NCBI RefSeq assembly: GCF_006345805.1
Contig: NC_043006.1
Location: 100,440,001-100,504,000, forward strand
From: Octopus sinensis
Taxonomy: Eukaryota
Length of the DNA: 64,000 nt
Reading direction: 5' to 3'
In this document: positions 7,262 through 37,998 of the stretch, piece after piece
Layout: each line of letters opens with the position of its first letter
Position numbering within the stretch: the stretch's first letter is position 1
Translations under genes and position numbers: made by a program
Notes under the pieces: generated by a model
Seen by the model: the letters and a program-made list of their open reading frames with translations, nothing else
Told to the model about the DNA's origin: nothing
Database searches by the model: none

Positions 7262-7620
7262 ATAATCAAAATAAGCTATATGAATATCATCGGTAATTTG
7301 GTACGATCTCTAGAGATCTCTGTCTGTATATCTACCCTCTTTATAATGTTATCAATTAACATGGAAATAAGTATACGTATTGATGGACAACCTCAGTAAA
7401 TGGCTGATGATTGCTCAACATTTTCAAGCTGTTGTAATTATTACAATGTTTAATAAAATGATGTCGCGTGAAACGATTGTACCAAATTACCAAAGATATT
7501 CTTGTTACTTATTTTGATTATAATGACCCCATGGATTTATATGGATAACACCGTACAAAATTCTGGTGCATCTGACTTAAGTACCATATTCATTTGAATC
7601 TAAATTTTGCTGAACTTATA
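7262..7620 (+). mobile_element. Hammerhead-bearing element in (TA)n with short inverted left arm (decayed)
   Basis: 7262-7304 is an inverted copy of 7476-7521. Plus strand 7401-7484 reads UGG-CUGAUGA-(long, imperfect stem II)-GAAAC-GAUU-GUA-CCA. Confidence 0.55.
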
Positions 7621-7768
7621 TATATACATATACATCTATAAATTCAATATAGCTGACGACTGGCATCACGTTTGAAACTCAAGAGTACCAATGAATTGGA
7701 ATCAAACTCTTTTGATCCATACATACACATATATGTGTGTGCATGTGTGTGTGTGTGTGTGTGTGTGT

Positions 7769-8090
7769 GGAGGCTCGTGGCTTAGTGGTTAGGGTATTCT
7801 GCTCGCGTTCGTAGGGTCACGAGTTCGATTTCCGGCGGCGCATTGTGTCCTCGAGCAAAACACTTTATTTGACGTTGCTACAATTCACTCAGCTAATAAA
7901 AATGAGTTGTGTCTGTATTTCAAGGGGCCAGCCTTGTCACACTCTGTGTCACGTTGAATCGCCGTGAGAAGTATGAGAAGGGGTACGCGTGTCTGTGGAG
8001 TGCCCAATCACGTGAAATTAATCTCACGAGCAAGCTGTTCCGTTGATCAGATCAACTGGAAACCCCGTCGTTGTAAGCGACACAGTGCCA
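7769..8090 (+). mobile_element. tRNA-derived SINE
   Basis: A-box TGGCTTAGTGG and B-box GAGTTCGATTTCC. 3' half shared with 8679-8998 and 12440-12690. Confidence 0.8.
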
Positions 8091-8177
8091 CTCTCTCCTC
8101 TCCCTCTCTATTTCTTACTTTTTTTCTCTCTCTCTCTCAATATCTCAATATATATATATATAGATATATATATATAT

Positions 8178-8230
<53 letters not shown>

Positions 8231-8678
8231 ATATTATATATATATATTGACACATGTATATCTATGTATTTTTACATGCACATACACACAAAAACACACA
8301 CTCAGACACACACACACACACATATATATTTATATATACACGTATATAATTAACACTGTCTTCATGTGGACGTTCATCTGTAGTGACGACCTGACCATCT
8401 TTTCAATGGTAACCAATCATTTGGGGTTTTGAACCAGATAAAAAATTACCTTCCCCTAAAACATTTTCAGTTAAGTTTTCACACATCTCTTAAGATATTA
8501 TGATAATCTGAAACCACATACACACCTTATAAACATTACTTCTACTATATTGCTTATGTCTTAATTGAAGACCGTCAGTGACATTTAAATACATGTTCCC
8601 CTTCCTCACTCTATTTATCCTCCCATCTCTTTTACTTTGTCACTCAGTTTGTCTGTATCTTTGTGTCTCTGTGTATGT

Positions 8679-8998
8679 GGAGGCGCAATGGCCCAGTGGT
8701 TAGGGCAGCGGACTCGCGGTCGTAGGATCGCGGTTTCGATTCCCAGACCGGGCGTTGTGGGTGTTTATTGAGCGAAAACACCTAAAGTACTCTTTCACCA
8801 CAACTTTCTCTCACTCTTACTTCCTGTTTCTGTTGTACCTGTATTTCACTCTCTGTGTCACGCTGAATATCCCCGAGAACTACGTTAAGGGTACACGTGT
8901 CTGTGGAGTGCTCAGCCACTTACACGTTAATTTCACGAGCAGGCTGTTCCGTTGATTCGGATCAACCGGAACCCTCATCGTCGTAACCGATGTAGTGC
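8679..8998 (+). mobile_element. tRNA-derived SINE
   Basis: GGAGGCGCAATGGCCCAGTGGTTAGGGCAGCGGACT...GGTTTCGATTCC tRNA-like head. Shared tail GAGAACTACGTTAAGGGTACACGTGTCTGTGGAGTG. Confidence 0.85.
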
Positions 8999-9049
8999 TT
9001 CCTTTGTTATGCGTGACTATATTTGAAGTGGATCCGCGAAAAGAGATGG

Positions 9050-9574
9050 TCATCTTACTTGTTTCAGTCTTTTGACTGCGGCCATACTGGGGAACCGCCT
9101 TGAAGGGTTTTAGCCGCACAAATTGCACAAATAGATCCCAGGAGTTTTTAAAGCCTAGTACATATTATATCGGTCTTTTTGCGGGGACAAATCACACCAA
9201 CACCGGTACTCAAGCGGTGTGGTCGGACAAGCACCGATACAAAGACACACACATAGATATGCACATATATACGGTGAACTTTCCCATAGAAGACGTCGTA
9301 TTAGCGTCCGGCTTTTTTGCCGAACGCCCTGCAAAACTGATTTGTTTATAGTGATCAAATGTTCATGCCGCACATTAGCTGACTCTCTCTCTCTATTAAA
9401 TCGACTTTATCTGAATAGGTGCACTGTGGACCACGTGTCAAGTGTCGTAGTGACTGCAAAGCAAAGTGAGATGAAGTGTTTTGCTGAAGAGCTCAATGCA
9501 CCACCCGTTCTAGGAACTGAAACCACGATCTAGCGATCATAAGCGCAACACCCTAACCACTAGGACTTGCGCCA
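9050..9574 (-). mobile_element. Two adjacent minus-strand SINE pieces (3' tail 9050-9240; head-containing piece ~9280-9574)
   Basis: The reverse complement gives a GGCGCAAGTCCTAGTGGTTAGGGTGTTG head and a CCCCAGTATGGCCGCAGTCAAAAGACTGAAACAAGTAAGA tail as in 61840-62232. Confidence 0.65.
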
Positions 9575-10984
9575 TATATATTGGTTAGTTTTAATATCAT
9601 AATAAATTATACTGTACGTTAGTAAGGTCCTGCCAAGCAAAATTGCATAAAACAGCCAACCATTTTAAAATCAATTCCAGCTGCCATTAGTTTCAAAATT
9701 TGGTACAAAGCCAGCAAGCTCGAAGGAGCGAATATTGCAAAGAATGTGCTCCACATTTTGACAGATACCATTTCTAAGGCAGCAAGGATAAATTTAGTCT
9801 TCTATTGGATGAATATAATGACATTGCTAACAAGCGTCTGGAAATGGTTATAAAATATTTCTGTAAATTTTAGCAAGCGTTATGCAAATTAAATATTAAC
9901 AGTCTATCGTCTATCACAAATTAAAAAGCCACTATCATGATGGGAGTTAAAATAACGGTGCCTATCAGATTTTAAAAGAAGCTTCGTTATTATAACATCT
10001 TATTAGGCGGGGAGCTGACACAGTCGTTAGCACACCGTTGGTTTTTTTTTTTTTTCTGCGACATGTGAAGGCCACCAGTTAATTCTCTTTTGGAATCAAT
10101 TAATCTAATTGTAATTGATACAACCCAGCGTTGAATGACAATAAAATAACGTTTTGCTTTTTCCTACAAGAATCCACATTTCTAATAGTGAAAATGTTAT
10201 GACAGAAATTATATATCAGAGAAATGTTATAAAGAAAATCGTTTTCGAGATGTAGCAGTATTTATTCTTAACCTCTTAATATATTACCTACCTCAAGTAC
10301 CGAGGGAGAAAATTTATATGGTAGCTCGAATGTTATCAAAACAAATTTAAGAAATGAAATGCAACCATCAACACTTGGGAGATTTTCTCTGTAAAATATG
10401 GCCTGAAACCACTTACCTTAAAGTATCAATAAATAATATTGGCACAGTGGATATATATATATATATATATATCTAGCCCAGAAATGAAGTAGAAATAAAG
10501 GATTCATCAATTTAGATGCTGATCCAATATACCAGCAAATATTCCATTTCTACGCTTCAATGACAGGCATCAATTTTTATATATTGTTGCATTTTTCAGG
10601 AATTATTTTCGTAGGAATCTAACGTTAAACTGTAATTTGCATTTATCAACACCATTCTCGTTAGTTTTTAAAAGCGTAAAAGATTACGAGTCACTGCGGA
10701 CGCCTATACGTAGTCGTGCAGCCAGCTAGAAATAGCTGCTAAATCTCTATCCCACAGCAACTTATTAAAAGAGATTAGACTCCATGGTTACTGTGGTCCA
10801 AGATGCACAAAAGCGCCTCTCTACGCACTGTGCTTACAGATCTCTTCGGCTTCTTCGGTTGTAAGTTTAGTCAAACCATTATTGCTATTTTAAGAAATAC
10901 TACACTTTGTATAACACGCTAAAAATATCGAGGTGGACCTCAATGCCAGCACCTTCCAATTCAAATAATATTACAAACCATCTA

Positions 10985-11563
10985 AGGTGGCGAGCTAGCG
11001 GAAATGTTAGGACGCCGGGCGAAATGTTTAGCGGTATTTCGTGTGCCGTTACGTTCTGAGTTCAAATTCTGCCGAGGTCGACTTTGCCTTTCATCCTTTT
11101 GGGGTCGATTAAATAAGTACCAGTTACGCACTGTGGTCGATGTAATCGACTTAAACCGTTTGATCTCCTTGTTTGTCCCCTCTGTGTTTAGCCCCTTGCG
11201 GGTAGTAAATAAATAGGCATTTCGTCTGCCGCTACGTTCTGAATTCAAATTCCGCCGAGGTCGACTTTGCCTTTCATCTTTTCGGGGTCAATTAAATAAG
11301 TACCAGTTGCGTACTGGGGTCGATGTAATCGGCTTAATCCCTTTGTCTGTCCTTGTTTGTCCATGCTATGTTTAGCTCCTTGTGGGTAATAAGGAAATAG
11401 GTATTTCGTCTCTCTTTAAGTTCTTAGTTCAAATTCGGCCACGGTCGACATTGCCTTTCATCATTTCGGGGTCGATAAATTAAGTACCAGTAGCGTACTG
11501 GGGTTGATCTACTCGGCTGACCGCCTCCGCAAGAATTCCGGGCCTTGTACCTAGAGTAGAAAA
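10985..11563 (+). mobile_element. SINE with three tandem ~184-bp internal units
   Basis: Head GGTGGCGAGCTAGCGGAAATGTTAG. Units start at ~11035, 11218 and 11402, each with a (G)AGTTCAAATTC-like box and GCCTTTCATC..GGGGTC..AAGTACCAG. Confidence 0.8.
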
Positions 11564-12439
11564 TATCACAAACCATCTGGCTTCAGAGATACATGTTGGT
11601 GAATCTTTCTTTCGCAAATTGCTTGCATCTTCCTTATATCTAATTTCAACAAGAAATGTCTTTTCAAACCTCTTATTGTCTTTTTGTGCTTCAGAAATAA
11701 ATAAACCATACCTTGCTATAGTTCCTTAAACAATTTTGGGTTGTGTATCCCAATTCATATAAATTGTGTATCTCAATTTATATTTTATATTTATTTATGC
11801 ATAGCATCAGTATTTTAACTCCTTCCTGTCTTACTACTTAGCAGTGAGAAGAACTATATCTTCCTGCTCATCTAATTCAACAATTTCATGAGTTACAACG
11901 CTCCATTGGTCCACATGATTTCCGTTAGCAAAAATTGCTATTTTCGTTCTCCTCTTACAATATTATATGCAACGACTGAGTGCATTTTCCTTTTCGATTT
12001 AGCTGAGTGATCATAATCTTGCCTCCTCTCTTTTTCACTTTTCCCATTCATTCAATTTATATACCACTATTTTCTTTCTTTCTCTTCTGCAGTCTTATCT
12101 TTTAAAACAGGAATAGTTTCATTTTTCACTAAATATTTCATCTTCTCCAATATTTTCTGGTTCAGGACTTCTCTACTTCTCGTTAATTGGACTTTTATAT
12201 TCTTCATTTATAACAATATCTTAAGCATTTCACTCAAGTTCTTTACCTACTCGCAACATCAATTTATCTATATTATTGAGGTACCTTCACCAGTTGACAC
12301 TATTTCGAAACACTCAGTCTTTTTGACTTTTTGAATTTCTCACCGACAAATAAATCTTGAAGAGCGTAACTCCTCACATTAGATGTCACTGGTCTCATTC
12401 TTTCACTAATCTCTGCTTAGATGTGGTGAACCCTGCAGG

Positions 12440-12690
12440 GGATGGTGGTGAACCCTGCTGTACTCTTTCACCACAACTTTCTCTCGCTCTTTCTTCCCGT
12501 TTCTCTTGTACCTGTATTTCAAAGGGCCAGCCTTGTCACTCTCTGTGTCACGCTGAATCTCCTCGAGAACTACGTTAAGGGTACACGTGTCTGTGGAGTG
12601 CTCAGCCACTTGCACGTTAATATAACGAGCAAGCTGTTCCGTTGATCGTATCAGCTGGGACCCTCATCGTCGCAACCGACGGAGTGCTCC
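12440..12690 (+). mobile_element. SINE 3' portion
   Basis: Near-identical to the tail of 8679-8998. Confidence 0.75.
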
Positions 12691-13923
12691 TATAGTGTAT
12701 TTTGGCACTCGTAATGCCAGTTTATCTGGACCACATTATTAGGAATACCGAAGCGCATTCTTAGCACTGATAGCCCATGCCAGGACAAACTCTGGGCCAC
12801 ACGATATTTATATGCTTTTCTCATTACATAAATTATTCTCACATTTGGTACCATTGCTAAATAAACGATTTGAAGCAGTAATAAATGTTTCAATGTTGAG
12901 TTTTAAATAGCTATTCATTTTTCCTAGCAATTTACGTTAACATCTTCCACATCGTTGCTTATAAAACAAATAAAGAAGTTCAAAATAAGATAGGTTCGCC
13001 AAAAATATATTCTTAATGATAAATTCCTTTTTCTTTATTTTAATTAATGTCGTAGCAGAGTTTAAAGTACATGCAGAATCTATTGCTTATTCTAAGCGAG
13101 TCTCTTCAAATCCAGACTAAATTTGTCATTAGATTTCTCCCAAAGTTGAGGTTTATAAAGCTATGATAAATCTGACATGAGCCAAAGATTTTTTTTATAA
13201 CTCAGTTCTAAGAATTCATCTGAATATTTAATATTTTGGAAATATCCGGTGCCAGTTCCCCTTGTAAGCCATGGGTAATCTGGTGGTTGATTGTCTTGTT
13301 TCTCTTCTGGGGCGTCCACTTAGACGTTTTGCCATGCTATGCAATTTTCAAAATGCAGTAATCTTTTAGCATCATATTATTCAAGGGGGTGCGAAAGTAA
13401 ACATAAGACAACGTATACAGACGGGACATCTATTAGTAATCGGTCGACTCGTTACATATAACAGCTAAGTCTCCTTCATATTATCACCTTTAATCTTTAA
13501 AAAGACACATGAGATGATGTGGTCTTTCAGCCCGTCTCAGATGGTAGCCACATCCCACTCACAATCGTAACTGCCTCATATTTGTTGATAATGTACGTAC
13601 TCCTATTAAATGTAGCAGGCATAGAGGAAATTACAACCTACGCCCTACAAGAGACACGCTCAATCAGCGATCCATCATACATTACAAACGAATGAATAAT
13701 TTCTCACTATAGATCTTCTCCATTATGTTTACTCTGGGGTTTCCATACAAATATTCACATTAACACATAAAGAGAGAAACACAATACCGCTACTTTAAAC
13801 GTTATTTTAATACACACACATATGCAGCCATACATGTATCTATCTATCTATCTATCTATCTATATATATATATCTATTTGTATATATATATATATATATA
13901 CACATACCTGTATATATTTATGC

Positions 13924-13969
<46 letters not shown>

Positions 13970-14002
13970 ATATTTATGCGTGTATATATATATATATATA
14001 TA

Positions 14003-14340
14003 TGCATATATGGGTACATGATGTCAGCAGCAGTAAACAACGTGAAGTAGGAAAACAAGCGAGTTAAATACGTAAAGAACGAGAGAAAAATTGAAAACAG
14101 GACAAGTAGCACAAAGAACGACCCGTCATCAGCTGTCGGTTGTCTATCTACTCCACATTTCGAGTATTTAACAACAATATAAGAATTCGAAGACAGTTGC
14201 TCCCATAACTTACAACATAAATTTTGGATTTTTTGGGACAGTGGAGACATACAAGGAAACCGAACGAAAACAAATATGGAGAGTCGTTACACCAGAACGA
14301 CGGGAAAATAGTGAACGCTGGAATAAATATTTTCTTTGAA
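14003..14340 (-). repeat. Interspersed repeat anchored in (TA)n (family of 4862-5112 and 15843-15970)
   Basis: Clear similarity to 15843-15970 (AACAACGAGAGAAAAA..GAAAACAGGACA.GTA.CACAAAGAACGACCC). Confidence 0.6.
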
Positions 14341-14614: not shown

Positions 14615-14690
<76 letters not shown>

Positions 14691-14722
14691 TAATAAATTA
14701 TAATAAATTATAATAAATTAAA

Positions 14723-14835
14723 TTCTCTGAAGAGGCCGTGGGGCATCCTTGTTAATGTCTCATTTATACCTGACTTATATGGCTTATAGGTTAAATGAGG
14801 CATGCTTGCCCTTACTGCCGAAACAGCTGTCAGAT
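14723..14835 (+). ncRNA. Type I hammerhead ribozyme with ~85-nt stem II, in an element between (TA)n tracts (14687-15020)
   Basis: UCU-CUGAAGA(14727)-GGC..GUGGGGCA..AUGUCUCAUUUA..UAAAUGAGGCAU..UGCCCUUAC..GCC-GAAAC(14820)-AGCU-GUC-AGA. Confidence 0.75.
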
Positions 14836-15037
14836 ATGATATAATTACATATTATATTTTATATTTTATATTTCTATTTCCTTGTCTAATTATATTTACA
14901 ATATATTTTGTATAATGCCTTTACTGTTATGTAATGGTGTAATAAAGTATTGATTGTGTATCATCTGTTGGTTGATGTTTGATTGATTTAAGTATGTTTC
15001 TCCATTTTCTAATTTTGTTATATATATATATATATAA

Positions 15038-15750
15038 TAGTTATCGCCATACTAATATGGCATTCTTATAAAAATAAGAATAAAAGCTGTCCGCTTATTA
15101 GCTCCATGAGGCCATCGCCTTAAGTTAGCTATTTGATACACAAACTGTATCCATATAACCTTCGAACAAGGGAGGTCAGTCGCTCCACACTACTTGACCG
15201 GCAGCTACAGACGCGTTTCGGGGTATTGCCCCTTTTCAATGCAGCGTAGCCAGCCAGTAGGTGTCGCTTCCGACAATCTCTGTTCGATGGTTTTATTTAC
15301 CTAGTTTCGGTGGAATACATCCACTTGTTTCAATAATAGAAATATTAAAATTACTAAGTCTCTCTAAAAGAGAACAGCGGCAGCGTTCCCGGAAAATGAT
15401 AGTTATCGCCATACTAATATGGCATTCTTATAAAAATAAGAATAAAAGCTGTCCGCTTATTAGCTCCATGAGGCCATCGCCTAAGTTAGCTATTTGATAC
15501 ACAAACTGTATCCATATAACCTTCGAACAATAGTGTGGAGCGACTGACCTCCCTTGTTCGAAGGTATATGGATACAGTTTGTGTATCAAATAGCTAACTT
15601 AAGGCGATGGCCTCATGGAGCTAATAAGCGGACAGCTTTTATTCTTATTTTTATAAGAATGCCATATTAGTATGGCGATAACTATTATTTTCCGGGAACG
15701 CTGCCGCTGTTCTCTTTTAGAGAGACTTAGTAATTTTAATATTTCTATTA
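15038..15750. mobile_element. Retrozyme/pLTR-like insertion: 362-bp monomer x1.35 plus inverted arm, flanked by (TA)n
   Basis: TTATCGCCATAC recurs at 15041 and 15403. 15531-15750 is an inverted copy that runs across the monomer junction. Confidence 0.8.
15204..15245 (-). ncRNA. Minimal type I hammerhead ribozyme with U3-A8 variant core
   Basis: Minus strand: GCUGCA-UUGAAAA-GGGG-CAAUA-CCCC-GAAAC-GC-GUC-UGUAGC. Confidence 0.7.
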
Positions 15751-15770
15751 TATATATATATATATTATAT

Positions 15771-15816
<46 letters not shown>

Positions 15817-15842
15817 TATATATGTATGCATGTATGTATATA

Positions 15843-15970
15843 TGCATTGTGGGTACAGCACATCGGCAGCTGTAAACAGTATGAAGTACGAAGACAAGCG
15901 ACTTAAATACGCAAACAACGAGAGAAAAATATGAAAACAGGACACGTAACACAAAGAACGACCCTTCATA
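15843..15970 (-). repeat. Truncated copy of the 14003-14340 repeat family
   Basis: Direct sequence similarity to 14003-14130. Confidence 0.6.
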
Positions 15971-16307: not shown

Positions 16308-16341
<34 letters not shown>

Positions 16342-22055: not shown

Positions 22056-23473
22056 CAATATCATACATGTTAAGGAATAATAAATATGTACTCTACAATA
22101 AGTATTGAGTAACTCGTCAGTATAATGGATAATATATATTATTACCTGATATAAAAACACATAGCAATGCATACAAACATACGTAACTACATATACATAC
22201 GTATATTCGGAATCAATACTTTTCAAATTAAAATGAAAATTTTGCAGAACTACAGAAAAGTGAAGGCGCATACAATTTAAAACATTGGATGGTTGAGTAA
22301 ATAAATTAATGTACTTAAAAAGTTCCTCCAAAGCCATGCCACAAGGTTGGACGGAAAATATTGATAAAATGAATGCTATATTACAAGAAAAGGGATTAAA
22401 TATGCTTAAAACTTTGAGAAACGTACGACCTATCTGTGCATACGATCTATATACTTATTCACACACGCACACACACATACACACACGTGGACGCCCACGC
22501 ATGTACATATATTATATAGTGTGTGTGTGTGTGCTAAGATAGATGCGTGTTGCTTTCTGAAAGAACACTGAGCCTTTTAAGTGTTACCGTACTTAATCCT
22601 TAATGCTATAATCAGTATGGACGAGACCTTTTCCTTCATCACATGTATATAATCGTAAATATGACTATGCTGTGCTGATTATCTAATATAGCGTCGGTAG
22701 AGAGAGCAACGTTTAACAGGTTTTTGGATTGTCGTTGTAGTGGCCTCTCGTGACCATTGAAGGTACAATTTTCTTATGTTTTACATGCAGTTCAATCCTG
22801 CTGTCTCCAGGAAGAAAATATTATATATATAAAAAGATAAGGTAGCTAAAGTAGAAACAATTAATTCGGCTGATTACATTCAAATTTCATCACTTATTAT
22901 ATTATTGCATTATCCTTTGGCGGTTGTCAATCGAAAGGAAAGACAATGGGGGAAATATATCCGTTTAATTAAATTCTAAGTGGCGAATAGAGAGACTGTC
23001 TCAGTGCACTCGACAGGAAGTTCATTTTGGTGGATGAAAAATATATATATGTAGTTGACTTTATACAATCAGCATAATGGTTTCTGACATAAACACAATA
23101 CCGGAATGAGGAAAGGCAAAAACGAACAAACTTGCGGGGATTTAAATCGGGATTATGGTTATCATTTGATCGATCCTAATAATTAAAATACCGGTTCGAT
23201 ATCGCTATGAAACGCATCAAGAACGGACTAAAACTTATTTTCAAACCTATTCCTAAGCATGTTTTTTTTTTTACACAGTATTCGTCATTGTGCATATCTG
23301 AAATTCATAAACTGAATAAATTATCGATTTAATTATGTAAGAAAAGAAAATAGTATCTGTAAATTGAAATATTTTAAGAGCGTCAGCCACGGAATAAATG
23401 AATTTAGGTTTGAGTGAGAATTAAAAACTACTGTAGTGTCATTGGGCTGGGATATTGAGACATATTTCATGTC

Positions 23474-23911
23474 GGATCTTTTCGGTTTGAACGGCAGCTT
23501 TTAACATAATTTCTAGGTAACTAAAAAATTAAAATTCGTATACTGGTAGAATGTGTTTATAAAACATCTTTTTCTCTTGGCTTTATTGAGAAAATTCTAT
23601 GGTTTGTAAGATATTTGTTGTTTTTTTCTTCAATTTCTGCAATTTCAACCAATCAATGACGTCCATTTAGGTAAAAAAAACATTCTGTGCTGTATGAATA
23701 TGCCCCTCGTTTAAGAACCGCATTGGGTTTATTTACATTTGTGAAGAAAAAAAGATACCCTTCCCCCCACAGCTAACCCTAACTAACCCTAACTCTAACC
23801 CTAACCCTAAAACAGATTGAAATGCAATAGATCGATACTAGGGTCATAATTATGGGTGACAATTTCATATGACACCGCTAGAAAAAACTGCCGTTCAAAC
23901 CGAAAAGATCC
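23474..23911. mobile_element. Non-autonomous DNA transposon with 24-bp TIRs and 8-bp TSD (Merlin- or hAT-like), containing (CCCTAA)-like repeats
   Basis: TIR GGATCTTTTCGGTTTGAACGGCAG / CTGCCGTTCAAACCGAAAAGATCC. TSD TTCATGTC at 23466-23473 and 23912-23919. CTAACCCTAA repeats at 23772-23810. Confidence 0.85.
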
Positions 23912-24410
23912 TTCATGTCTTCTGGCATGTATCTCTAGAATGTCATTTAGATTTCAGCGGGGAATCATTTCATGTATACTTCAGTAACAAAATAGTTGTG
24001 TCGTGGATTATTTTTCTCGTTTTGGGTGTCTTACCTCCTTTCCTTTTAATGTTCGTTTTATGTCACTACCCTTTTGTATATGATAGTTTCATTTTTCTGA
24101 ATTCTGTATTATTTGGTCGTAGACTTTGTCTCCTATTTGTTTTCATTTTTGCAAAGGAATCTTTAGAGTGGACTGAAAATATTGACTGATTACAGAAAAA
24201 TAACTTCATAACATTATTTAGCAAAAGAACGTGCTATATATATATATATATATATAAAATAAATATAAGAGAGTGGTCACTATATGGCTCACTCTAGCAC
24301 CAGTTAATCCAAAAGGTTTCAACCACAAAAATACATGTTTCCCATGAAAGTCAGTACGATTGTTAGCTCACACGGACAGGGCAAACAAAAAATAACAAAA
24401 ATACAGATTA

Positions 24411-24492
24411 TTTTGGGACAATTGTTTCGCTATTAATGAATTAAATGTAATTTTACTTACAAAAAAATCCACTTGTAGCTCCTCAGCCAAAA
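24411..24492 (-). ncRNA. Type I hammerhead ribozyme (left arm copy)
   Basis: Reverse complement of 24942-25023. Confidence 0.8.
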
Positions 24493-24941
24493 CTATCTGG
24501 ATGAAATCCACTCAATCACACGCCAGATTTTACCATAACGATAAATACACGTGTGGTTCAATTGATTACATCCGACGTTATAATTCAAATGCCCCAACTA
24601 ACAGCGCGCCAAATTTTCACGGAAAACAAATACAGCATTTAGAAATAAATGCAGCATAATTATAATTAATTAATAAGGGTGAGAGAATTAGATACTAATT
24701 TAATAGTATATCTATTCTACACCAAGTGGCCTAGTGCTCCGAGAAACCTGGATTATTATAATATTTTATAATATATTATAATATTTTTACAAAATAAATA
24801 TAAGAGAACCACACGTGTATTTATCGTTATGGTAAAATCTGGCGTGTGAATTATAACGTCGGATGTAATCAATTGAACCACACGTGTAATTATCGTTATG
24901 GTAAAATCTGGCGTGTGATTGAGTGGATTTCATCCAGATAG

Positions 24942-25023
24942 TTTTGGCTGAGGAGCTACAAGTGGATTTTTTTGTAAGTAAAATTACATTTAATTCATTA
25001 ATAGCGAAACAATTGTCCCAAAA
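24942..25023 (+). ncRNA. Type I hammerhead ribozyme (right arm copy)
   Basis: UUUUGG-CUGAGGA-GCUA..GUGGAUU..UGUAA..UUACA..AAUUCAU..UAGC-GAAAC-AAUU-GUC-CCAAAA. 6-bp stem I, palindromic stem III. Confidence 0.85.
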
Positions 25024-25300
25024 TAATCTGTATTTTTGTTATTTTTTATTTGCCCTGTCCGTGTGAGCTAACAATCGTACTGACTTTCATGGGAAACATG
25101 TATTTTTGTGATTGAAACCTTTTGGATTAACTGGTGCTACAGTGAGCCATATAGTGACCACTCTCTTATATTTATTTTGTAAAAATATTATAATATATTA
25201 TAAAAATATTATAATAATCCAGGTTTCTCGGAGCACTAGGCCACTTGGTGTAGAATAGATATACTATTAAATTAGTATCTAATTCTCTCACCCTTATTAA

Positions 25301-25389
<89 letters not shown>

Positions 25390-27343
25390 AGGTGTCTGGA
25401 ATATGATTCTAGTTTCAACAGTGATGGTAGAAGTCGTTAATTGTACTTAATGTATTTTTTATATATGTTTTCGTATGATCTGTTTCGCTGTTTATGTCTG
25501 ATTCTGTACATCCGATAGATTGTTGCTTCGCTATTGTTGTTACTGTAATGTTAATAGCTGAAGAAACATTTGTTCTGTTTCTGCTTTGAAGAATGTGCTA
25601 AATTATATTTGTTCTGGAATTAGACTTACTTTACAGCTTGACTGTGCAAATTCCGAAAGTAATTCTACTTCCCTTGGAGAAGAATAAGAAAATTTCTACA
25701 TTAGTTAAGGAGAGGTACTTACTATCGATTTTTGTCATATCACCTCGAGAAGATTACAATCGCGACTGCTTTCTACGTCGAACGAAAAACATATGAAACC
25801 TCAGTATTATAAAAATATTATAGCAGTGTTGTAACCATTGTTTGTCCATTAGATCAGCAGCCAATGATGTTAGAATGTCGGGTAGGTCGCTTAGTACTAG
25901 CGATGCAACTCACTGCGCACTCTGTTCGAGTCTCACCGATGCTAACTTTGCCTTCCATCATTCTGGGCTCAGATAATAAAGTTCTATATCAGTTCGGAAG
26001 TCAATGCTCCTCCCTTTTTCTTTCTTTCTTTCCGCATCTTTCTTTCTCTCTGACATATATTGAATGTGATCACACCTGGAGAAGGACATGATCTGCTGAG
26101 CTCAAATGTCCAATACAGCCCGTATGCCACACGAGGGCCTCCCTATGGCTTCATAAAGAAGACAAGGACTAACAGCATAACGTAGTATAATCTCCAGTGT
26201 GCTGTTCGTTTTTGAAAATCTTATTCCTTTATTCATAACTGATTATTACGTTTCGGTTAACTCAGAATTATATTTAAGATAGCAATGAAATAACCAAACT
26301 GATTTCTTGACGAACCAATTTATCTTAAGATTTAAGTTTACATACCATTTGAATGAGTACAATGAAAATTTTACGCAAATAGTTTAATGGCGAATTTATT
26401 GAAGTTAAGGTGTAAAGTTTCCCTTAGTCTATGCAGAAGATTTAACATTCATTGGCTGTCGCATTTAAAAATGGGCAATCGATTTGAAGAAACTTTTTGC
26501 TTTGGTTATTTGGAAGTTAATAAACTTTTGATAATGAGTAATAACATTAATTAAAACAACCAACATTTTTCAGTACATATATATAATGGTGTTCTTGTTT
26601 ATTCCTGGTTACTTAAGATCACAACACCTCTGGTCAATACTATTCAATGAACGAGGAAAAGGAAGAAAATAAAAAATATAAAAAACAGACAAGAAGTTTT
26701 CACAAAGCCGTAAGGTTTGAAAATCAAAAGCAAAAGAGTATTTGACGTTTCGGACATTAAAATTCTTCATAACAGAAAAGAAACGAAGAGAAGTGGTGGA
26801 AAGACGCAAAGACGCAAAGACGATAAAAGGTTTAGGGGCCTGGTTCGAATACAGTTCAATGAGGAGGAGTCAAAAAGAGAGGGAAAGACGGGGTGTAGTT
26901 AGCAAATATATGAGAGAGGAACTGTGTAAGAAGATGCGTATCGGGAATGTATTACGAGCAGTGTGGGATGGGGATGGTTCGGTACATGTTTTTGTATATA
27001 TACACTTTTTTATAAGACTTAAGTAGCTGAAGATGTCGAATTATAGAATTTACGTACTAAGTCATTCTACACAAGCGCTAAATTATTACACACGAACGCT
27101 AAATTATTCAACGCCCGCTGGAATCATACTGCTTATTTATTTTTATTTTGTATTCGAAAGTTCATTCTCCTTTTTTCTTTGTCTCATAGATTTCAAATAA
27201 TCTTTTTGTATTCATAAAGTCTGGTGATCGAATTAATGCTATATATATATATGATTGATTGATTGATTGATTCCAGTTTCAGCTTATGAGCTGTGGCCAT
27301 GCTGGGGCACCGCCATTTATATATATATATATATAAATATTAT

Positions 27344-27953
27344 TATATTATTTTTGTTGCTGAAAAAGGCGAAACTGCAGTCTAAGATGAACAGAGTTAG
27401 TAAAAGTTTTTATCTTCATTTCACTAAATTTATCAAGCTTCTGTGTTTCTAGTACATACTTCGCCTTTAATGTACTTATATATGAATAATATATGGCCTG
27501 TGCTAGAAACACCAGCGATAATAATTAATTTTATTTTATCGCATTTTGAATTTGTTTACATATTTCTCGATAAATTTTGAGCGTTAGACTATATACCAGA
27601 AATCCCTAGTTTGTCGGGTTCGTTCTGCGTCTGCGCAGTGATCTGATTAGTTAGAAAGAGCAAATTAGTAGACGCACATGTGTCTATCGAGTTGCGCTTC
27701 ATAATAACAGGAATCTTACTGAAGAGCCTACCTGAGTAAATAAATATTATTTTTGTTGCTGAAAAAGGCGAAACTGCAGTCTAAGATGAACAGAGTTAGT
27801 AAAAGTTTTTATCTTCATTTCACTAAATTTATCAAGCTTCTGTGTTTCTAGTACAAACTTCGCCTTTAATGTACTTATATATGAATAATATATGGCCTGT
27901 GCTAGAAACTCCAGCGATAATAATTAATTTTATTTTATCGCCTTTTGAATTTG

Positions 27954-27955
<2 letters not shown>
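27344..27955 (+). mobile_element. Retrozyme/pLTR-like insertion: 399-bp monomer x~1.5 between (TA)n tracts
   Basis: 27345-27556 is repeated at 27744-27955 (offset 399). Confidence 0.8.
27713..27787 (+). ncRNA. Type I hammerhead ribozyme
   Basis: AUCUUA-CUGAAGA-GCCU..AGGC-GAAAC-UGCA-GUC-UAAGAU. Confidence 0.85.
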
Positions 27956-28712: not shown

Positions 28713-29201
28713 AAATATGGGGGTTTAAGGTGGTCTAAACAGTTAGGTAGGGTAGGCAAGTGCTGTAACGGATTACCAAGGCTCCAAGGCTATAGCGGAG
28801 ACGGTAGTTATGGAGCCATTGTAGATTTCCGATATAGCGGATGTATAATTGTTAAAGAGAACAACAAAAGTTTAGGCAAGACAAGCATCTCACATCACAT
28901 ACATCATTATTATTGGGAACAATTCAAGGTCTTACACCTGTTTCTGGGATATCCCAGAGTATAGGATGTTCCGTCATCGGATATAAATAGGGTAAATGAG
29001 AAGGGTATCTCATTGTAAGAGTTTACATTTTTCCCAGTAGTAATAATGTATATGACTTAAGATGTGTGTCTTGCCTTAAAATTCGTTGTCCTCTTTAACA
29101 AGTATATATGAGTGTGTGTGGATGTGTGTGTACATATATATGTATATGTATATATATTTATATATGTGTGTGTATGTATATGTATATACATATATATATA
29201 T

Positions 29202-32200
29202 ATACTAAGCAATAAGGGTTCAGCAACGAATTGCCTTACCACATACCGAATTTAGAAATAGCAGTCAAAGGGTTATAGCTATTTCTTCTACTAAAAAGGG
29301 AGATCTCAGTAAAAACAGCAATTGGAAGGCTGACACAAACAGGTAAGAGAGAATGAATTAACCGCAATCTATCAAACATTTTTAAAGTTATCCACGGACG
29401 TACGTTCGAAATCAAGTTTTAGGAAAGCATAAGAATTAAAATATTAAATATTAAATAATTCTATCTTACCGAAACTTCTTTTCTCTTCAGCGTGGATACT
29501 ATAATCATAAATGATTATATATTGAATTTTGAGATACTAGGAGGTACCAACTCAACTCAGTATCAGAGCGAGCTAGAATCCTCAACTAGTATCACCGAAT
29601 TCAAATTTGTGAATGAAACGATTGTGTCAACAGCCCCTTCTCACCCGCGTGTAGCCAAAACAAGATGCTGTAGTCATCTACTGAGATAAAATATGGTTAT
29701 CCGTAATAATGAAGGGTGAAATTAATTAATTTGGAATAATTATCAATTACACCAAGTAGTCTTCGGCATGTAAAAGCCTCATTGAGGAAAATTTAAGTAA
29801 TACTAAGCAATAAGGGTTCAGCAACGAATTGCCTTACCACATACCGAATTTAGAAATAGCAGTCAAAGGTTATAGCTATTTCTTCTACTAAAAAGGGAGA
29901 TCTCAGTAAAAACAGCAATTGGAAGGCTGACACAAACAGGTAAGAGAGAATGAATTAACCGCAATCTATCAAACATTTTTAAAGTTATCCACGGACGTAC
30001 GTTTCGAAATCAAGTTTTAGGAAAGCATAAGAATTAAAATATTAAATATTAAATAATTCTATCTTACCGAAACTTCTTTTCTCTTCAGCGTGGAATACTA
30101 TAATCATAAATGATTATATATTGAATTTTGAGATACTAGGAGGTACCAACTCAACTCAGTATCAGAGCGAGCTAGAATCCTCAACTAGTATCACCGAATT
30201 CAAATTTGTGAATGAAACGATTGTGTCAACAGCCCCTTCTCACCCGCGTGTAGCCAAAACAAGATGCTGTAGTCATCTACTGAGATAAAATGGTTATCCG
30301 TAATAATGAAGGGTGAAATTAATTAATTTGGAATAATTATCAATTACACCAAGTAGTCTTCGGCATGTAAAAGCCTCATTTGAGGAAAATTTAAGTAATA
30401 CTAAGCAATAAGGGTTCAGCAACGAATTGCCTTACCACATACCGAATTTAGAAATAGCAGTCAAAGGGTTATAGCTATTCTTCTACTAAAAAGGGAGATC
30501 TCAGTAAAAACAGCAATTGGAAGGCTGACACAAACAGGTAAGAGAGAATGAATTAACCGCAATCTATCAAACATTTTTAAGTTATCCACGGACGTACGTT
30601 TCGAAATCAAGTTTTAGGAAAGCATAAGAATTAAAATATTAAATATTAAATAATTCTATCTTACCGAAACTTCTTTTCTCTTCAGCGTGGAATACTATAA
30701 TCATAAATGATTATATATTGAATTTTGAGATACTAGAGGTACCAACTCACTCAGTATCAGAGCGAGCTAGAATCCTCAACTAGTATCACCGAATTCAAAT
30801 TTGTGAATGAAACGATTGTGTCAACAGCCCCTTCTCACCCGCGTGTAGCCAAAACAAGATGCTGTAGTCATCTACTGAGATAAAATATGGTTATCCGTAA
30901 TAATGAAGGGTGAAATTAATTAATTTGGAATAATTATCAATTACACCAAGTAGTCTTCGGCATGTAAAAGCCTCATTTGAGGAAAATTTAAGTAATACTA
31001 AGCAATAAGGGTTCAGCAACGAATTGCCTTACCACATACCGAATTTAGAAATAGCAGTCAAAGGGTTATAGCTATTTCTTCTACTAAAAAGGGAGATCTC
31101 AGTAAAAACAGCAATTGGAAGGCTGACACAACAGGTAAGAGAGAATGAATTAACCGCAATCTATCAAACATTTTTAAAGTTATCCACGGACGTACGTTTC
31201 GAAATCAAGTTTTAGGAAAGCATAAGAATTAAAATATTAAATATTAAATAATTCTATCTTACCGAAACTTCTTTTCTCTTCAGCGTGGAATACTATAATC
31301 ATAATGATTATATATTGAATTTTGAGATACTAGGAGGTACCAACTCAACTCAGTATCAGAGCGAGCTAGAATCCTCAACTAGTATCACCGAATTCAAATT
31401 TGTGAATGAAACGATTGTGTCAACAGCCCCTTCTCACCCGCGTGTAGCCAAAACAAGATGCTGTAGTCATCTACTGAGATAAAATATGGTTATCCGTAAT
31501 AATGAAGGTGAAATTAATTAATTTGGAATAATTATCAATTACACCAGTAGTCTTCGGCATGTAAAAGCCTCATTTGAGGAAAATTTAAGTAATACTAAGC
31601 AATAAGGGTTCAGCAACGAATTGCCTTACCACATACCGAATTTAGAAATAGCAGTCAAAGGGTATAGCTATTTCTTCTACTAAAAAGGAGATCTCAGTAA
31701 AAACAGCAATTGGAAGGCTGACACAAACAGGTAAGAGAGAATGAATTAACCGCAATCTATCAAACATTTTTAAAGTTATCCACGGACGTACGTTTCGAAA
31801 TCAAGTTTTAGGAAAGCATAAGAATTAAAATATTAAATATTAATAATTCTATCTTACCGAAACTTCTTTTCTCTTCAGCGTGGAATACTATAATCATAAA
31901 TGATTATATATTGAATTTTGAGATACTAGGAGGTACCAACTCAACTCAGTATCAGAGCGAGCTAGAATCCTCAACTAGTATCACCGAATTCAAATTTGTG
32001 AATGAACGATTGTGTCAACAGCCCCTTCTCACCGCGTGTAGCCAAAACAAGATGCTGTAGTCATCTACTGAGATAAAATATGGTTATCCGTAATAATGAA
32101 GGGTGAAATTAATTAATTTGGAATAATTATCAATTACACCAAGTAGTCTTCGGCATGTAAAAGCCTCATTTGAGGAAAATTAAGTAATACTAAGCAATAA

Positions 32201-33083
32201 GGGTTCAGCAACGAATTGCCTTACCACATACCGAATTTAGAAATAGCAGTCAAAGGGTTATAGCTATTTCTTCTACTAAAAAGGGAGATCTCAGTAAAAA
32301 CAGCAATTGGAAGGCTGACACAAACAGGTAAGAGAGAATGAATTAACCGCAATCTATCAAACATTTTTAAAGTTATCCACGGACGTACGTTTCGAAATCA
32401 AGTTTTAGGAAAGCATAAGAATTAAAATATTAAATATTAATAATTCTATCTTACCGAAACTTCTTTTCTCTTCAGCGTGGAATACTATAATCATAAATGA
32501 TTATATATTGAATTTTGAGATACTAGGAGGTACCAACTCAACTCAGTATCAGAGCGAGCTAGAATCCTCAACTAGTATCACCGAATTCAAATTTGTGAAT
32601 GAACGATTGTGTCAACAGCCCCTTCTCACCCGCGTGTAGCCAAAACAAGATGCTGTAGTCATCTACTGAGATAAAATATGGTTATCCGTAATAATGAAGG
32701 GTGAAATTAATTAATTTGGAATAATTATCAATTACACCAAGTAGTCTTCGGCATGTAAAAGCCTCATTTGAGGAAAATTTAAGTAATACTAAGCAATAAG
32801 GGTTCAGCAACGAATTGCCTTACCACATACCGAATTTAGAATAGCAGTCAAAGGGTTATAGCTATTTCTTCTACAAAAAGGGAGATCTCAGTAAAAACAG
32901 CAATTGGAAGGCTGACACAAACAGGTAAGAGAGAATGAATTAACCGCAATCTATCAAACATTTTTAAAGTTATCCACGGACGTACGTTTCGAAATCAAGT
33001 TTTAGGAAAGCATAAGAATTAAAATATTAAATATTAAATAATTCTATCTTACCGAAACTTCTTTTCTCTTCAGCGTGGAATAC
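29202..33083 (-). repeat. Tandem array of a ~601-bp hammerhead-containing monomer, ~6.5 copies (RNA sense = minus)
   Basis: ATACTAAGC recurs at 29202, 29800, 30398, 30995, 31592, 32187 and 32786. Copies differ essentially only by 1-nt deletions. Seven ribozyme copies (e.g. 29391-29496, 29988-30094). Confidence 0.95.
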
Positions 33084-35051
33084 CCTTTGACTGCTATTTC
33101 TAAATTCGGTATGTGGTAAGGCAATTCGTTGCTGAACCCTTATTGCTTAGTATTACTTAAATTTTCCTCAAATGAGGCTTTTACATGCCGAAGACTACTT
33201 GGTGTAATTGATAATTATTCCAAATTAATTAATTTCACCCTTCATTATTACGGATAACCATATTTTATCTCAGTAGATGACTACAGCATCTTGTTTTGGC
33301 TACACGCGGGTGAGAAGGGGCTGTTGACACAATCGTTTCATTCACAAATTTGAATTCGGTGATACTAGTTGAGGATTCTAGCTCGCTCTGATACTGAGTT
33401 GAGTTGGTACCTCCTAGTATCTCAAAATTCAATATATAATCATTTATGATTATAGTATTCCACGCTGAAGAGAAAAGAAGTTTCGGTAAGATAGAATTAT
33501 TTAATATTTAATATTTTAATTCTTATGCTTTCCTAAAACTTGATTTCGAAACGTACGTCCGTGGATAACTTTAAAAATGTTTGATAGATTGCGGTTAATT
33601 CATTCTCTCTTACCTGTTTGTGTCAGCCTTCCAATTGCTGTTTTTACTGAGATCTCCCTTTTTAGTAGAAGAAATAGCTATAACCCTTTGACTGCTATTT
33701 CTAAATTCGGTATGTGGTAAGGCAATTCGTTGCTGAACCCTTATTGCTTAGTATTACTTAAATTTTCCTCAAATGAGGCTTTTACATGCCGAAGACTACT
33801 TGGTGTAATTGATAATTATTCCAAATTAATTAATTTCACCCTTCATTATTACGGATAACCATATTTTATCTCAGTAGATGACTACAGCATCTTGTTTTGG
33901 CTACACGCGGGTGAGAAGGGGCTGTTGACACAATCGTTTCATTCACAAATTTGAATTCGGTGATACTAGTTGAGGATTCTAGCTCGCTCTGATACTGAGT
34001 TGAGTTGGTACCTCCTAGTATCTCAAAATTCAATATATAATCATTTATGATTATAGTATTCCACGCTGAAGAGAAAAGAAGTTTCGGTAAGATAGAATTA
34101 TTTAATATTTAATATTTTAATTCTTATGCTTTCCTAAAACTTGATTTCGAAACGTACGTCCGTGGATAACTTTAAAAATGTTTGATAGATTGCGGTTAAT
34201 TCATTCTCTCTTACCTGTTTGTGTCAGCCTTCCAATTGCTGTTTTTACTGAGATCTCCCTTTTTAGTAGAAGAAATAGCTATAACCCTTTGACTGCTATT
34301 TCTAAATTCGGTATGTGGTAAGGCAATTCGTTGCTGAACCCTTATTGCTTAGTATTACTTAAATTTTCCTCAAATGAGGCTTTTACATGCCGAAGACTAC
34401 TTGGTGTAATTGATAATTATTCCAAATTAATTAATTTCACCCTTCATTATTACGGATAACCATATTTTATCTCAGTAGATGACTACAGCATCTTGTTTTG
34501 GCTACACGCGGGTGAGAAGGGGCTGTTGACACAATCGTTTCATTCACAATTTGAATTCGGTGATACTAGTTGAGGATTCTAGCTCGCTCTGATACTGAGT
34601 TGAGTTGGTACCTCCTAGTATCTCAAAATTCAATATATAATCATTTATGATTATAGTATTCCACGCTGAAGAGAAAAGAAGTTTCGGTAAGATAGAATTA
34701 TTTAATATTTAATATTTTAATTCTTATGCTTTCCTAAAACTTGATTTCGAAACGTACGTCCGTGGATAACTTTAAAAATGTTTGATAGATTGCGGTTAAT
34801 TCATTCTCTCTTACCTGTTTGTGTCAGCCTTCCAATTGCTGTTTTTACTGAGATCTCCCTTTTTAGTAGAAGAAATAGCTATAACCCTTTGACTGCTATT
34901 TCTAAATTCGGTATGTGGTAAGGCAATTCGTTGCTGAACCCTTATTGCTTAGTATTACTTAAATTTTCCTCAAATGAGGCTTTTACATGCCGAAGACTAC
35001 TTGGTGTAATTGATAATTATTCCAAATTAATTAATTTCACCCTTCATTATT

Positions 35052-35058
<7 letters not shown>
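33082..35058 (+). repeat. Inverted arm of the same array, ~3.3 copies (RNA sense = plus)
   Basis: ACCCTTTGACTG recurs at 33082, 33683, 34284 and 34884. Ends in (TA)n at 35058. Confidence 0.95.
33459..33565 (+). ncRNA. Type I hammerhead ribozyme with ~76-nt stem II (also at 34060-34166 and 34660-34766; seven more on minus in the left arm)
   Basis: UCCACG-CUGAAGA-GAAA..AAGUUU..AGAAUUA..UAAUUCU..AAACUU..UUUC-GAAAC-GUAC-GUC-CGUGGA. Confidence 0.88.
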
Positions 35059-35094
<36 letters not shown>

Positions 35095-35098
<4 letters not shown>

Positions 35099-35325
35099 AT
35101 CCAAACAAGAAAACACAGAAAAAAAGAGAAAAAAAACACAGCAACGCAGGACGTGGAACAATTAAAGTATTATTGACGCTCAGGAAAGAAGGGAAGGAGG
35201 GCTTAACGTTTCGAGCGGAGCTCTTCGTCGGAAACAAGGAGAAGGAAAAATCCCAAGAAGGGAAGACAGAGGAAAAAATATTTGAGCTGGTGGTGCTCAA
35301 GAGATCACATGTTGAAAGAATCATA
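35095..35325 (-). mobile_element. Penelope-like pLTR fragment with minimal hammerhead-like motif (35204-35236)
   Basis: Minus strand CCGACGA-A-GAGC-UCC-GCUC-GAAAC-GUU-A. Flanked by (TA)n. Confidence 0.45.
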
Positions 35326-35486
35326 TATGTATATTAAATTAGAGATAAAACCACTATTAGGCAAATCAAACAGTGAAAAACATAAGCCAATACATAAAAT
35401 TAATTTTAGAATATAAAAGTTTAAAAATTAAAAAACTATTTAAATAATTGAAACTTATAAATTTTAAATATATATATACAAATATA

Positions 35487-35532
<46 letters not shown>

Positions 35533-36332
35533 ATTTTTATATTTATATATTATTTTATTTATTTATTAATTAATTAATTTATTTATTTATTTTTTTATTT
35601 TTTATTCATTTTTTTAATATTTTAGTTTATAAATATCAAAAGAATTAAAAGTTTAATAAAAGACATGTATGTATGTATGTATGTATGTATGTATGTATGT
35701 GTGCATACGGATATAGTTATAATAATACATCATAAAGAAAATGGCGAATTTTACCAGAGCATAATCAATTTATTTACATTTTGTCAATTATGTAAGCCAA
35801 GGATCGTTTCCATATCAATTTTCATTCAAATTACATAAAATTGTATTATGAAATAACGAAGGTAGATATTGCTTCTGGGCGATAATTGAACGTGTGTTTT
35901 TACATCCTAATAGATTGCGTGTTCATCAACAAACTAAAATAGCAGCATGCGTTTATTTGTATGTGTGCATGTGTGAGTGTATGTGTATGTGTATGTGTGT
36001 GTGTATGTGTGTGTGTTAGCATGTTTGAAACAAAGAAACCGTTATAGGTGTATATATATTTAATTTTAGTTTATATGTTTATCAGTAAGTAAATCTATTT
36101 CATTTTAATTTATATTATTAATTGTGGCAACTTGAATTGCTATCATAATTTTTATTAATTTATCAATGGATTTGTAGGTGTGTTAGTCATAATTGTTGGT
36201 GCATAGGGTTAATTTTTTATATTTTAATTGATTAATCTAATTACATGTATCTATCGCGTGATTGGGCTATATTTTATTTTTGTTTTCTGTTTTACGATAG
36301 TTGTGTTTAACCTCTCAAGGATTTAAGTTATA

Positions 36333-36393
<61 letters not shown>

Positions 36394-36414
36394 CATTATT
36401 ATTATTATTAATTG

Positions 36415-36600
36415 AAAGTGGCGAGCGGCAGAATCGTTAGAACGCTGGACGAAATGCTTAGCGGTATTTCGTCTGTCGCTACGTTCTGAGATCAAAATAC
36501 GCCATGGTCGACTTTGCCTTTCATCCTTTCATGGTCAATGAAATATGTAATCGACTCATCTCCACCTTCCCAAATCTGCCCTTGTGGCAAAATTTTGAAA
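36415..36600 (+). mobile_element. SINE (family of 10985), single unit, after (ATT)n
   Basis: GTGGCGAGCGGCAGAATCGTTAG..GCTTAGCGGTATTTCGTCTG..GTCGACTTTGCCTTTCATCC. Confidence 0.75.
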
Positions 36601-36648
36601 TAATTATAAGTCTTATATCTTAGATTTATATTCAAGAACTTCTACGTA

Positions 36649-37553
36649 TCTACTACATATGTGGGAAGTTCTGTCTGTGTGTGTGTTTGTAGACTTGTTA
36701 GCTACTAAATCATATTATCGATTGTGATGAAACTTGACAGGTGAGTTGAACTCATGTCTAGAAACCTCATGGTATACTCATCGTGTCGAAAAAATGGATA
36801 ATAGGGCCCCTGAAAGGGATCCTTATATATACCTAATATATTTTATTTTCAAAGCCAAGGGAAATGGCCCATTCGCCCCTGGAAGGGATCCTTATGCATA
36901 CCCAAGGGAAATAACCCATTCATTTTCCTGCATTACTTGATATAAATCAAATCGTGTATGCTTATTACTTAGTATTTGAACTGCTAGAGTTATTTTCGCA
37001 AGTTATCTAGTGCAACCCTTAAACAAGTAAATAGTGTTTTCCTATACAATAGAATCACTTATTTTGGTTAGTGACTTATTCACGAATATACCAACACTAG
37101 GGCCCCTGAGGGTAATATTCTCTGGGAACGTACAAAAGTCCTTTTCAAAGTTATTTGCTTTGAATTGTTATTATCTCATATATGATTAGCTTGTTATTAC
37201 GTAACATACTTCACGACTTTAGTATACTTACCTTATTGGTATTTCCTCCTATATTCTATATACTCTGGGAACGCATTAAATCCCTTTTCCGGGATAGTTT
37301 ATGTGAATTCAAACTATCGGGTAACTAAATTGCTGTTATTACACAACTTACTTCACAATTTGTGTATTCATAACTTATCGGGAATTCCTAAAAACAAGAT
37401 CCTGTGTAAGAGAGTTCGGTATTCTCTATAAATGCACAAACATCCATTTTAAGGACAATATATGTTGTATTGATATTATTGGATTAGCGAAACAATTATG
37501 AGAACGGAACCAAGGGATAAGCTTTCCAGGGAATTGCCGGGAACGTCAGCTAG
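36649..37553 (+). mobile_element. Non-autonomous Helitron-like element
   Basis: A|TCTACTACATAT start. Subterminal hairpin TTCCAGG-GAATTG-CCGGGAA, CTAG|T end. Confidence 0.55.
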
Positions 37554-37605
37554 TATATAAATAAGTTTGTATGTACTTATGTATGTATAATACGTTTTGT
37601 GTCCT

Positions 37606-37665
<60 letters not shown>

Positions 37666-37672
<7 letters not shown>

Positions 37673-37998
37673 TATTAGAGACAAAACCACTATTTTGCAA
37701 AACAAACAAGGAAAGACTTAATCAATACATAAAATTTTAAAAAACCGCCATAATTTGAAACTGACTTATTGGAAGTCCACCTGAAGATTGTCGATCAAGA
37801 CAAGAAACGATTGTAGTGGCGGTTTTTTTGACTATTTATTAAAATTTTATGTATTGATTAAGTCTTTCCTTGTTTGTTTTGCAAAATAGTGGTTTTGTCT
37901 CTAATAATATTTTATAATATTTTACTATAAAATTGGATTTAATCCTAAATCTGATTTTTTTCCCTGTAAATTTGGATTTATTCCCTAATATTTATTAT
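37666..37998 (+). mobile_element. Hammerhead-bearing element with inverted left arm, between (TA)n tracts
   Basis: 37666-37750 is an inverted copy of ~37817-37915. Related fragment at 35338-35410. Confidence 0.75.
37777..37819 (+). ncRNA. Compact type I hammerhead ribozyme
   Basis: CCAC-CUGAAGA-UUGUC-GAUCAA-GACAA-GAAAC-GAUU-GUA-GUGG. Confidence 0.8.

Follow-up and report, generated by a model that had tools for sequence, protein, structure and literature searches.

We analyzed a 64,000-nt stretch of the Octopus sinensis genome (NC_043006.1, 100,440,001 to 100,504,000, forward strand), called the window here, within which all coordinates are counted, and focused on five inserts that consist of hammerhead ribozyme repeats in two opposed arms. 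Our findings suggest that such an insert was probably (at a probability of about 0.65) produced in a single event: a Penelope-like enzyme would have used the two 3′ ends of one cut as primers for reverse transcription, and end joining would have connected the products. This reading is supported by the geometry of the arms, the hammerhead motifs, the distinct 3′ stops, the overlap of the outer ends with TA, the microhomology or templated insert at the junctions and the near-identity of the arms. Judged from their sequence, the elements are protein-free hammerhead repeats with putative self-cleavage that resemble non-long terminal repeat (non-LTR) retrozymes, and they are likely mobilised by a Penelope-like enzyme that would act in trans.

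Divergent two-arm inserts between (TA)n tracts

The window was aligned to itself and all 54 segments of at least 100 nt between merged (TA)n tracts were scanned. Seven of these segments are two-arm hammerhead inserts, and in all seven the arms diverge, the left one being antisense and the right one sense. An earlier note on this DNA had named five of them and assigned the left arms to the minus and the right arms to the plus strand with (TA)n on both outer sides; self-alignment and segment scan agree with it on both points in five of five inserts, numbered 1 to 5 from left to right in the following. Two further, old pairs (5356-5690 and 28713-29109) have the same divergent layout. The note had oriented each element by its ribozyme; the left arms of the inserts at 7262 and 37666 (inserts 1 and 5) and the right arm of that at 15038 (insert 2) contain none, and these ribozyme-free arms were oriented by homology to the partner arm. 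The five inserts belong to unrelated families, as no cross-match among them was found in the self-alignment. The two-arm pattern is not universal, since at least two of the 54 segments are single-arm hammerhead inserts (14687-15018 and 27336-27954).

According to the motif scan of the window, inserts 3, 4 and 5 contain type I hammerheads whose stem III is palindromic, and the strict motif gave 22 matches, some of them counted twice, compared to none in five shuffles. Rfam returned no match at the gathering score. Single-strand folding energies gave mixed z-scores and did not tell the strands apart, so that orientation relies on the hammerhead core motif. The longest insert is an array (insert 4) for which alignment and motif scan define a left arm of about 6.5 units of 601 nt (29203-33083, minus) with six hammerhead units on the minus strand (30088 to 33073) and a right arm of about 3.3 units (33082-35058, plus) with three on the plus strand (33465, 34066 and 34666). 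By the same two methods the left arm of insert 3 (24256-24807, minus) comprises 1.03 units of about 535 nt with a hammerhead at 24486-24417(-), while its right arm (24850-25309, plus) carries one at 24948-25017(+) and has a 3′ end that recurs in other copies. Insert 2 has a left arm of 1.37 units of 362 nt (15036-15530, minus; alignment and scan) with a variant-core hammerhead at 15244-15210(-) and a right arm at 15531-15751 (plus). In insert 5 the left arm (37667-37750, minus) has an internal deletion of about 11 nt and the right arm (37751-37998, plus) a hammerhead at 37781-37815(+) found by the motif scan. Insert 1 is old: its left arm (7262-7309, minus) is short and represents the 3′ part only, and its right arm (7310-7620, plus) contains a hammerhead at 7404-7481 so degenerate that it was missed by both scans and recognised by eye. 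The earlier note had counted insert 1 as inverted, and we agree, although the inverted match, to 7475-7521, is restricted to 47 nt, of which 40 are identical (score 66 compared to a shuffle maximum of 34). Tandem units in the window measure 362, about 535, 601 and 400 nt with an AT content of 58-68%, inserts 1 and 5 hold less than one full repeat, and no stop-free frame of at least 110 amino acids was found in the five inserts.

Next, we compared the outer ends of the arms. The two arms of one insert never end at the same monomer position, their 3′ stops lying 66, about 130 and 103 nt apart in inserts 2, 3 and 4 and about 85-128 nt apart in the four older pairs. In all seven two-arm inserts a tail of 66-130 nt is thus present on one arm only, which is the right arm in inserts 1 to 5 (about 97 nt in insert 1 and about 85 nt in insert 5) and the left arm in the two old pairs. 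This offset corresponds to the one-sided tail known from Penelope-like elements. In inserts 2, 3 and 4, whose six outer ends are young, the template overlaps TA by 3, 3, 3, 0, 4 and 1 nt; one base is variable, and its alternative allele turns the overlap of 0 nt into 3 nt. The overlaps add up to 14 nt, whereas the null model has a mean of 5.65 (P about 0.01). The right-arm 3′ stop of insert 3 recurs as (TA)n loose ends in 5 contigs of one sequencing run (X3), and (TA)n loose ends lie 7 nt from the right end of the array in 16 contigs of another (X1). Two fixed start sites are therefore only partly shown, as the loose ends of the contigs are displayed only in part. Among the seven inserts no link of arm ends to the predicted cleavage site was found, except for three tips close to it (the left arm of insert 5, about 1 nt away at its inner tip; the right arm of insert 2, which begins 17 nt past it; and the right arm of the 28713 pair).

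At the inner ends, the junction of the array had been described as an overlap of only 2 nt without a perfect palindrome, and we found exactly this (AC, 33082-33083). The junction of insert 2 is either blunt or a 4-nt overlap minus one base. In insert 3 a 42-nt templated insert (24808-24849, plus), bordered by microhomologies of 2 nt and 3 nt, separates the arms; it is the exact reverse complement of the left arm at 24516-24559 and has one mismatch to the right arm. Templated junction inserts resemble polymerase theta joints. With regard to the relation between the arms, neither arm of inserts 2 and 3 is a contiguous stretch of the other, so that plain fold-back copying cannot produce them and each would have been copied from a repeating template. 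The units of the array show 0 substitutions between the arms and carry minority letters at four places (where 83-100% of the family depth differs), which indicates that both arms come from one source. The left-arm units differ from the unit only by deletions of 1-2 nt (2-6 per unit); these look like read error and make the unit count uncertain. Arm divergence amounts to 5 substitutions in insert 3 and to about 15-22% in the older inserts.

In order to see the layout in other copies, four sequencing runs from four studies were compared at a likeness of 90 with a repeat-free monomer's worth of sequence spanning the array inversion. In this frame head-to-head joints skip from left to right, whereas tail-to-tail joints go back. 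We observed 21 joints, 1 of normal continuity and 20 others. Of the latter, 18 were visible; all 18 are skips (antisense to sense) and none goes back, in a comparison that is blind to tail-to-tail pairs split by a long tract. Each skip joint occurs in one run, at a depth of 27-63 compared to a single-copy depth of 42.5 (X1) or 38.1 (X2). A second read comparison added three antisense-to-sense joints among the 10 listed. As a rough figure, the summed depth of the families is about 10^4 times that of the flank.

We also searched metagenome contigs with a generic hammerhead pattern and obtained 125 stretches in 12 of 64 parts scanned, corresponding to 122 loci, 92 of them distinct. Among 54 hammerhead-like loci testable on both sides, an inverted copy was present upstream in 13 and downstream in none, and 19 weak-stem loci gave two more upstream and again none downstream. 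Equal numbers of divergent and convergent arrangements, which the earlier note would have taken as evidence against its proposal, were thus seen neither in the visible read joints nor at the metagenome loci. At none of these loci was (TA)n present within 1300 nt of the ribozyme. Target-site duplications are unreadable inside (TA)n; at two metagenome loci (L132 and L134) direct repeats of 12 bp and 13 bp surround the whole two-arm unit, as one staggered cut would leave, and such repeats were clear in these 2 of the 19 loci examined. At three other loci (L069, L101 and L136) the sense arm opens with the tail sequence of the family, a circular permutation. These permuted arms are consistent with a template of about 200 nt that is circular or tandem.

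Probable priming from both ends of one cut and alternative explanations

The earlier note had proposed two priming events, one per end of a cut TA repeat, whose products are joined, and had referred to twin priming in L1. Two joined priming events remain the best-fitting model, with two restrictions. A (TA)n tract is not needed, because the same layout occurs at metagenome loci without one. The L1-type scheme does not apply either: in L1 twin priming the arms do not overlap, the second primer being placed where the first cDNA (complementary DNA) stops. Collision of this type was rejected here since the right arm runs 71, 155 and 330 nt beyond the start of the left arm in inserts 4, 2 and 3, respectively. 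In the model that we favour, a Penelope-like enzyme would cut both strands of the (TA)n tract and both target 3′ ends would prime reverse transcription. Two internal sites (the Penelope ‘tail’) would be preferred as starting points of the two cDNAs, with one source RNA or sister transcripts, as a circle or multimer, serving as template for both. They would grow toward each other, their tips sometimes snapping back briefly on themselves, and would finally be connected by microhomology-type end joining; if only one end were extended, a single-arm insert would result. Each target 3′ end is in this way joined to a cDNA start, the layout expected of two target-primed events, and the snap-back, a step that we infer, would yield the hairpins at the junctions as well as the 42-nt stretch between the arms of insert 3. 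More tentatively, and at slightly less than even odds, the enzyme might act as a dimer, each subunit of which takes one cut end and anneals it in a telomerase-like manner, by TA microhomology of 3-4 nt, to a shared retrozyme RNA at either of its two fixed start sites. With comparable reserve we consider that every head-to-head insert could then arise in a one-step process in which the cDNAs meet and are joined, with snap-back explaining the junction palindromes in print. If the dimer reading is true, the inverted pseudo-LTR (pLTR) and the one-sided tail of Penelope-like elements would be explained together and the model of antisense self-priming would be replaced.

Several observations weigh against two-ended priming or narrow the evidence for it. 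Short junction overlaps of 0-3 nt, as the earlier note had expected, do exist, but their frequency is not clearly above chance, as an overlap of at least 2 nt arises in 16-19% of random joins. The short side of each read joint measures 20-29 letters, and same-part inversions were not displayed, so that near-palindromic junctions fall outside the count. Among the contigs listed none spans 33083 or 24807-24850 and none, in a comparison that excluded the TA stretch 24227-24273, confirms an empty site. The 17 positive metagenome cases all belong to one linked sequence cluster rather than to many independent families. No gene for a partner enzyme was identified: no open reading frame (ORF) with reverse transcriptase (RT) and GIY-YIG was found in the inserts or among the 9 frames scanned, and none was recognised beside the metagenome copies by a motif screen. 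Other points concern the arms and their junctions. Stems of 7 bp, a length reached or exceeded at 5 of 222 random places, occur at two of the seven junctions, both of them old (7306-7319 in insert 1, a 14-bp perfect palindrome in the stem test, and about 28995-29014); the left arm lies wholly within the right arm in inserts 1 and 5; and the array, being periodic, could in principle be a fold-back product. Such stems are predicted by self-priming or fold-back, in which a single reverse transcription product folds back, or an antisense template primes itself, and the inverted arm is copied (PMC3846280). The exact match of the 42-nt insert to the left arm of insert 3 and the containment of the left arm in inserts 1 and 5 speak for this explanation as well, and near-identical arms would be expected. 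Nevertheless, we regard it as unlikely, since inserts 2 and 3 require sequence in each arm that is missing from the other, the other five junctions show no unusual stem, the TA overlap is present at both outer ends, and an inverted product in double-stranded form would still have to be joined to the target on either side.

Even less probable appears a patching process independent of an endonuclease, in which the (TA)n tract breaks spontaneously as a cruciform and both ends are extended by a reverse transcriptase; the copying would again be two-ended, and the cause of the cut would differ. Cruciform formation and breakage of AT repeats are described in the available parts of PMC12972899 and PMC11797062, and no target duplication is readable inside (TA)n; however, L132 and L134 show the same layout with flanking duplications of 12-13 bp and without (TA)n, and in the accessible text of PMC11167929 a Penelope-like enzyme cuts AT-rich DNA on both strands. 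That two separate insertions or a later recombination set copies of a family back to back is largely refuted and very improbable. The families are very abundant, and inserts of different families can be neighbours at a common tract (14687-15018 and insert 2), but there is no (TA)n between the arms, the array arms share four minority variants without a single substitution, and tail-to-tail joints were found neither in the reads nor at the metagenome loci. Just as remote is an origin of the inversions from chimeric reads or assembly: the left arm of the array differs by deletions only and the junctions of the window itself are spanned by no contig among those listed, yet left and right flanks differ, the arms differ by substitutions in insert 3 and in the older inserts, and in the four runs, which come from four studies, like joints reach single-copy depth.

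Relation to Penelope-like elements, retrozymes and L1

In the parts of the literature accessible to us, the head-to-head copy is the commonest inverted arrangement of Penelope, occurs with tail and duplications and is explained by self-priming on an antisense template (PMC3846280); an inverted 5′-truncated copy, a tail and (TA)n targets are likewise described (PMC8557442). The statement of the earlier note that Penelope-like elements often carry an inverted pLTR is therefore published in both. Our inserts share with Penelope-like insertions the inverted 5′-truncated head-to-head copy, partial tandems, a tail at one end, (TA)n targets and the type I hammerhead. In contrast, they are non-coding and do not contain the RT plus GIY-YIG ORF of an autonomous Penelope-like element, their tail measures 66-130 nt rather than the 30-40 bp given in the printed sources available, and five of the seven junctions lack the palindromes that underlie the self-priming model. 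Animal non-LTR retrozymes have been defined and linked to Penelope-like elements (PMC7229834; bioRxiv 10.64898/2026.07.22.740005; both seen in part). Common to them and the elements described here are tandem low-GC non-coding units that each carry a type I hammerhead and are thought to be moved by Penelope-like elements; here, however, units of 535 and 601 nt exceed the reported 170-400 nt. The main text of PMC7229834 does not use the word ‘inverted’, and in the available part of the preprint it is found only in a reference title. Family motifs gave no match in viral contigs, and the generic hammerhead motif gave 23.

According to the portions of PMC11167929 at hand, the purified Poseidon protein of Anolis cleaves AT-rich DNA on both strands and extends both; it is predicted to form a dimer, and its two internal start sites delimit the tail. 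AT-rich DNA, cutting and extension of both strands and two internal start sites equal to the tail are thus common to Poseidon in vitro and the model favoured here. A difference that again counts against our model is that the start sites of Poseidon, in the same portions, are non-homologous to the target, whereas four or five of the six young ends overlap TA by 3-4 nt; moreover, these portions do not tie the two extensions to head-to-head inserts. With L1 twin priming the inserts share an antisense left and a sense right arm and two primers at one cut, but they have no poly(A), and their arms have overlapping sequences that begin in a common 3′ region. We found no explicit two-ended model in the literature searched, which covered few of the older Penelope papers and no supplements.

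The layout is thus already known, while the retrozyme-like families that show it are new and provide useful mechanistic evidence; the mechanism, inferred with good reason, differs from that in print. The value of the finding therefore lies in the mechanism and not in a new kind of element. For the origin of the inverted ends and the one-sided tail of Penelope, the proposal published in the sources at hand is antisense self-priming, accompanied by a call for experiments. Young, non-coding and very abundant copies are a natural read-out of the insertion mechanism, and the activity on both strands in vitro is linked to the genomic layout by arms that are not nested, by the two stop sites, by the TA overlap and by the rare variants that the arms share.

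Single-arm inserts and other repeats in the window

The sixth pair (5356-5690) contains a hammerhead at 5557-5523(-) and a degenerate one on the plus strand, and the seventh (28713-29109) a degenerate hammerhead on the minus strand, recognised by eye, and a 7-bp hairpin at the junction. The single-arm insert at 14687-15018 (plus) lies between two (TA)n tracts, and that at 27336-27954 (plus) consists of 1.55 units of 400 nt with a hammerhead at 27719-27781 and without inversion. Both show short reiterated units where the 5′ end meets the TA tract (10 nt × 4 at 14679-14720; 8 nt × 2 at 27336-27352), which suggests slippage during joining. Further single-arm pieces facing TA were observed at 35095-35330 (-) and 35323-35401 (-), one with an altered-core hammerhead-like motif and one related to insert 5. 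In addition, a TA-flanked repeat at 14100-14175 (-), with a relative at 15759-15969, has GAAA before CTGATGA and looks like a hammerhead in scrambled order.

Three self-inverted segments (4848-5031 or, drawn wider, 4848-5100; 44857-44904; and 45681-45960) have no ribozyme to orient them and were for this reason excluded from the two-arm count. Two other candidates, 6570-7012 and 23468-23917, were rejected as two-arm inserts, as they have terminal inverted repeats and rather resemble miniature inverted-repeat transposable elements; sequence from the end of 23468-23917 is extremely abundant in all four sequencing runs. A non-LTR-like element is represented by 3′ fragments of about 800 nt, arranged in tandem and each between (GATA)n tracts, at 51550-54430, and (TTA)n-flanked remnants of non-LTR retrotransposons occur at 59680-61260 and 63010-64000, with a zf-RVT match at 60078-60776(-). 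Finally, a 184-bp tandem repeat is present in 2.7 copies at 10986-11518 and in five copies at 49810-50776, where it is surrounded by a mariner-like remnant that gave a weak DDE_3 match.

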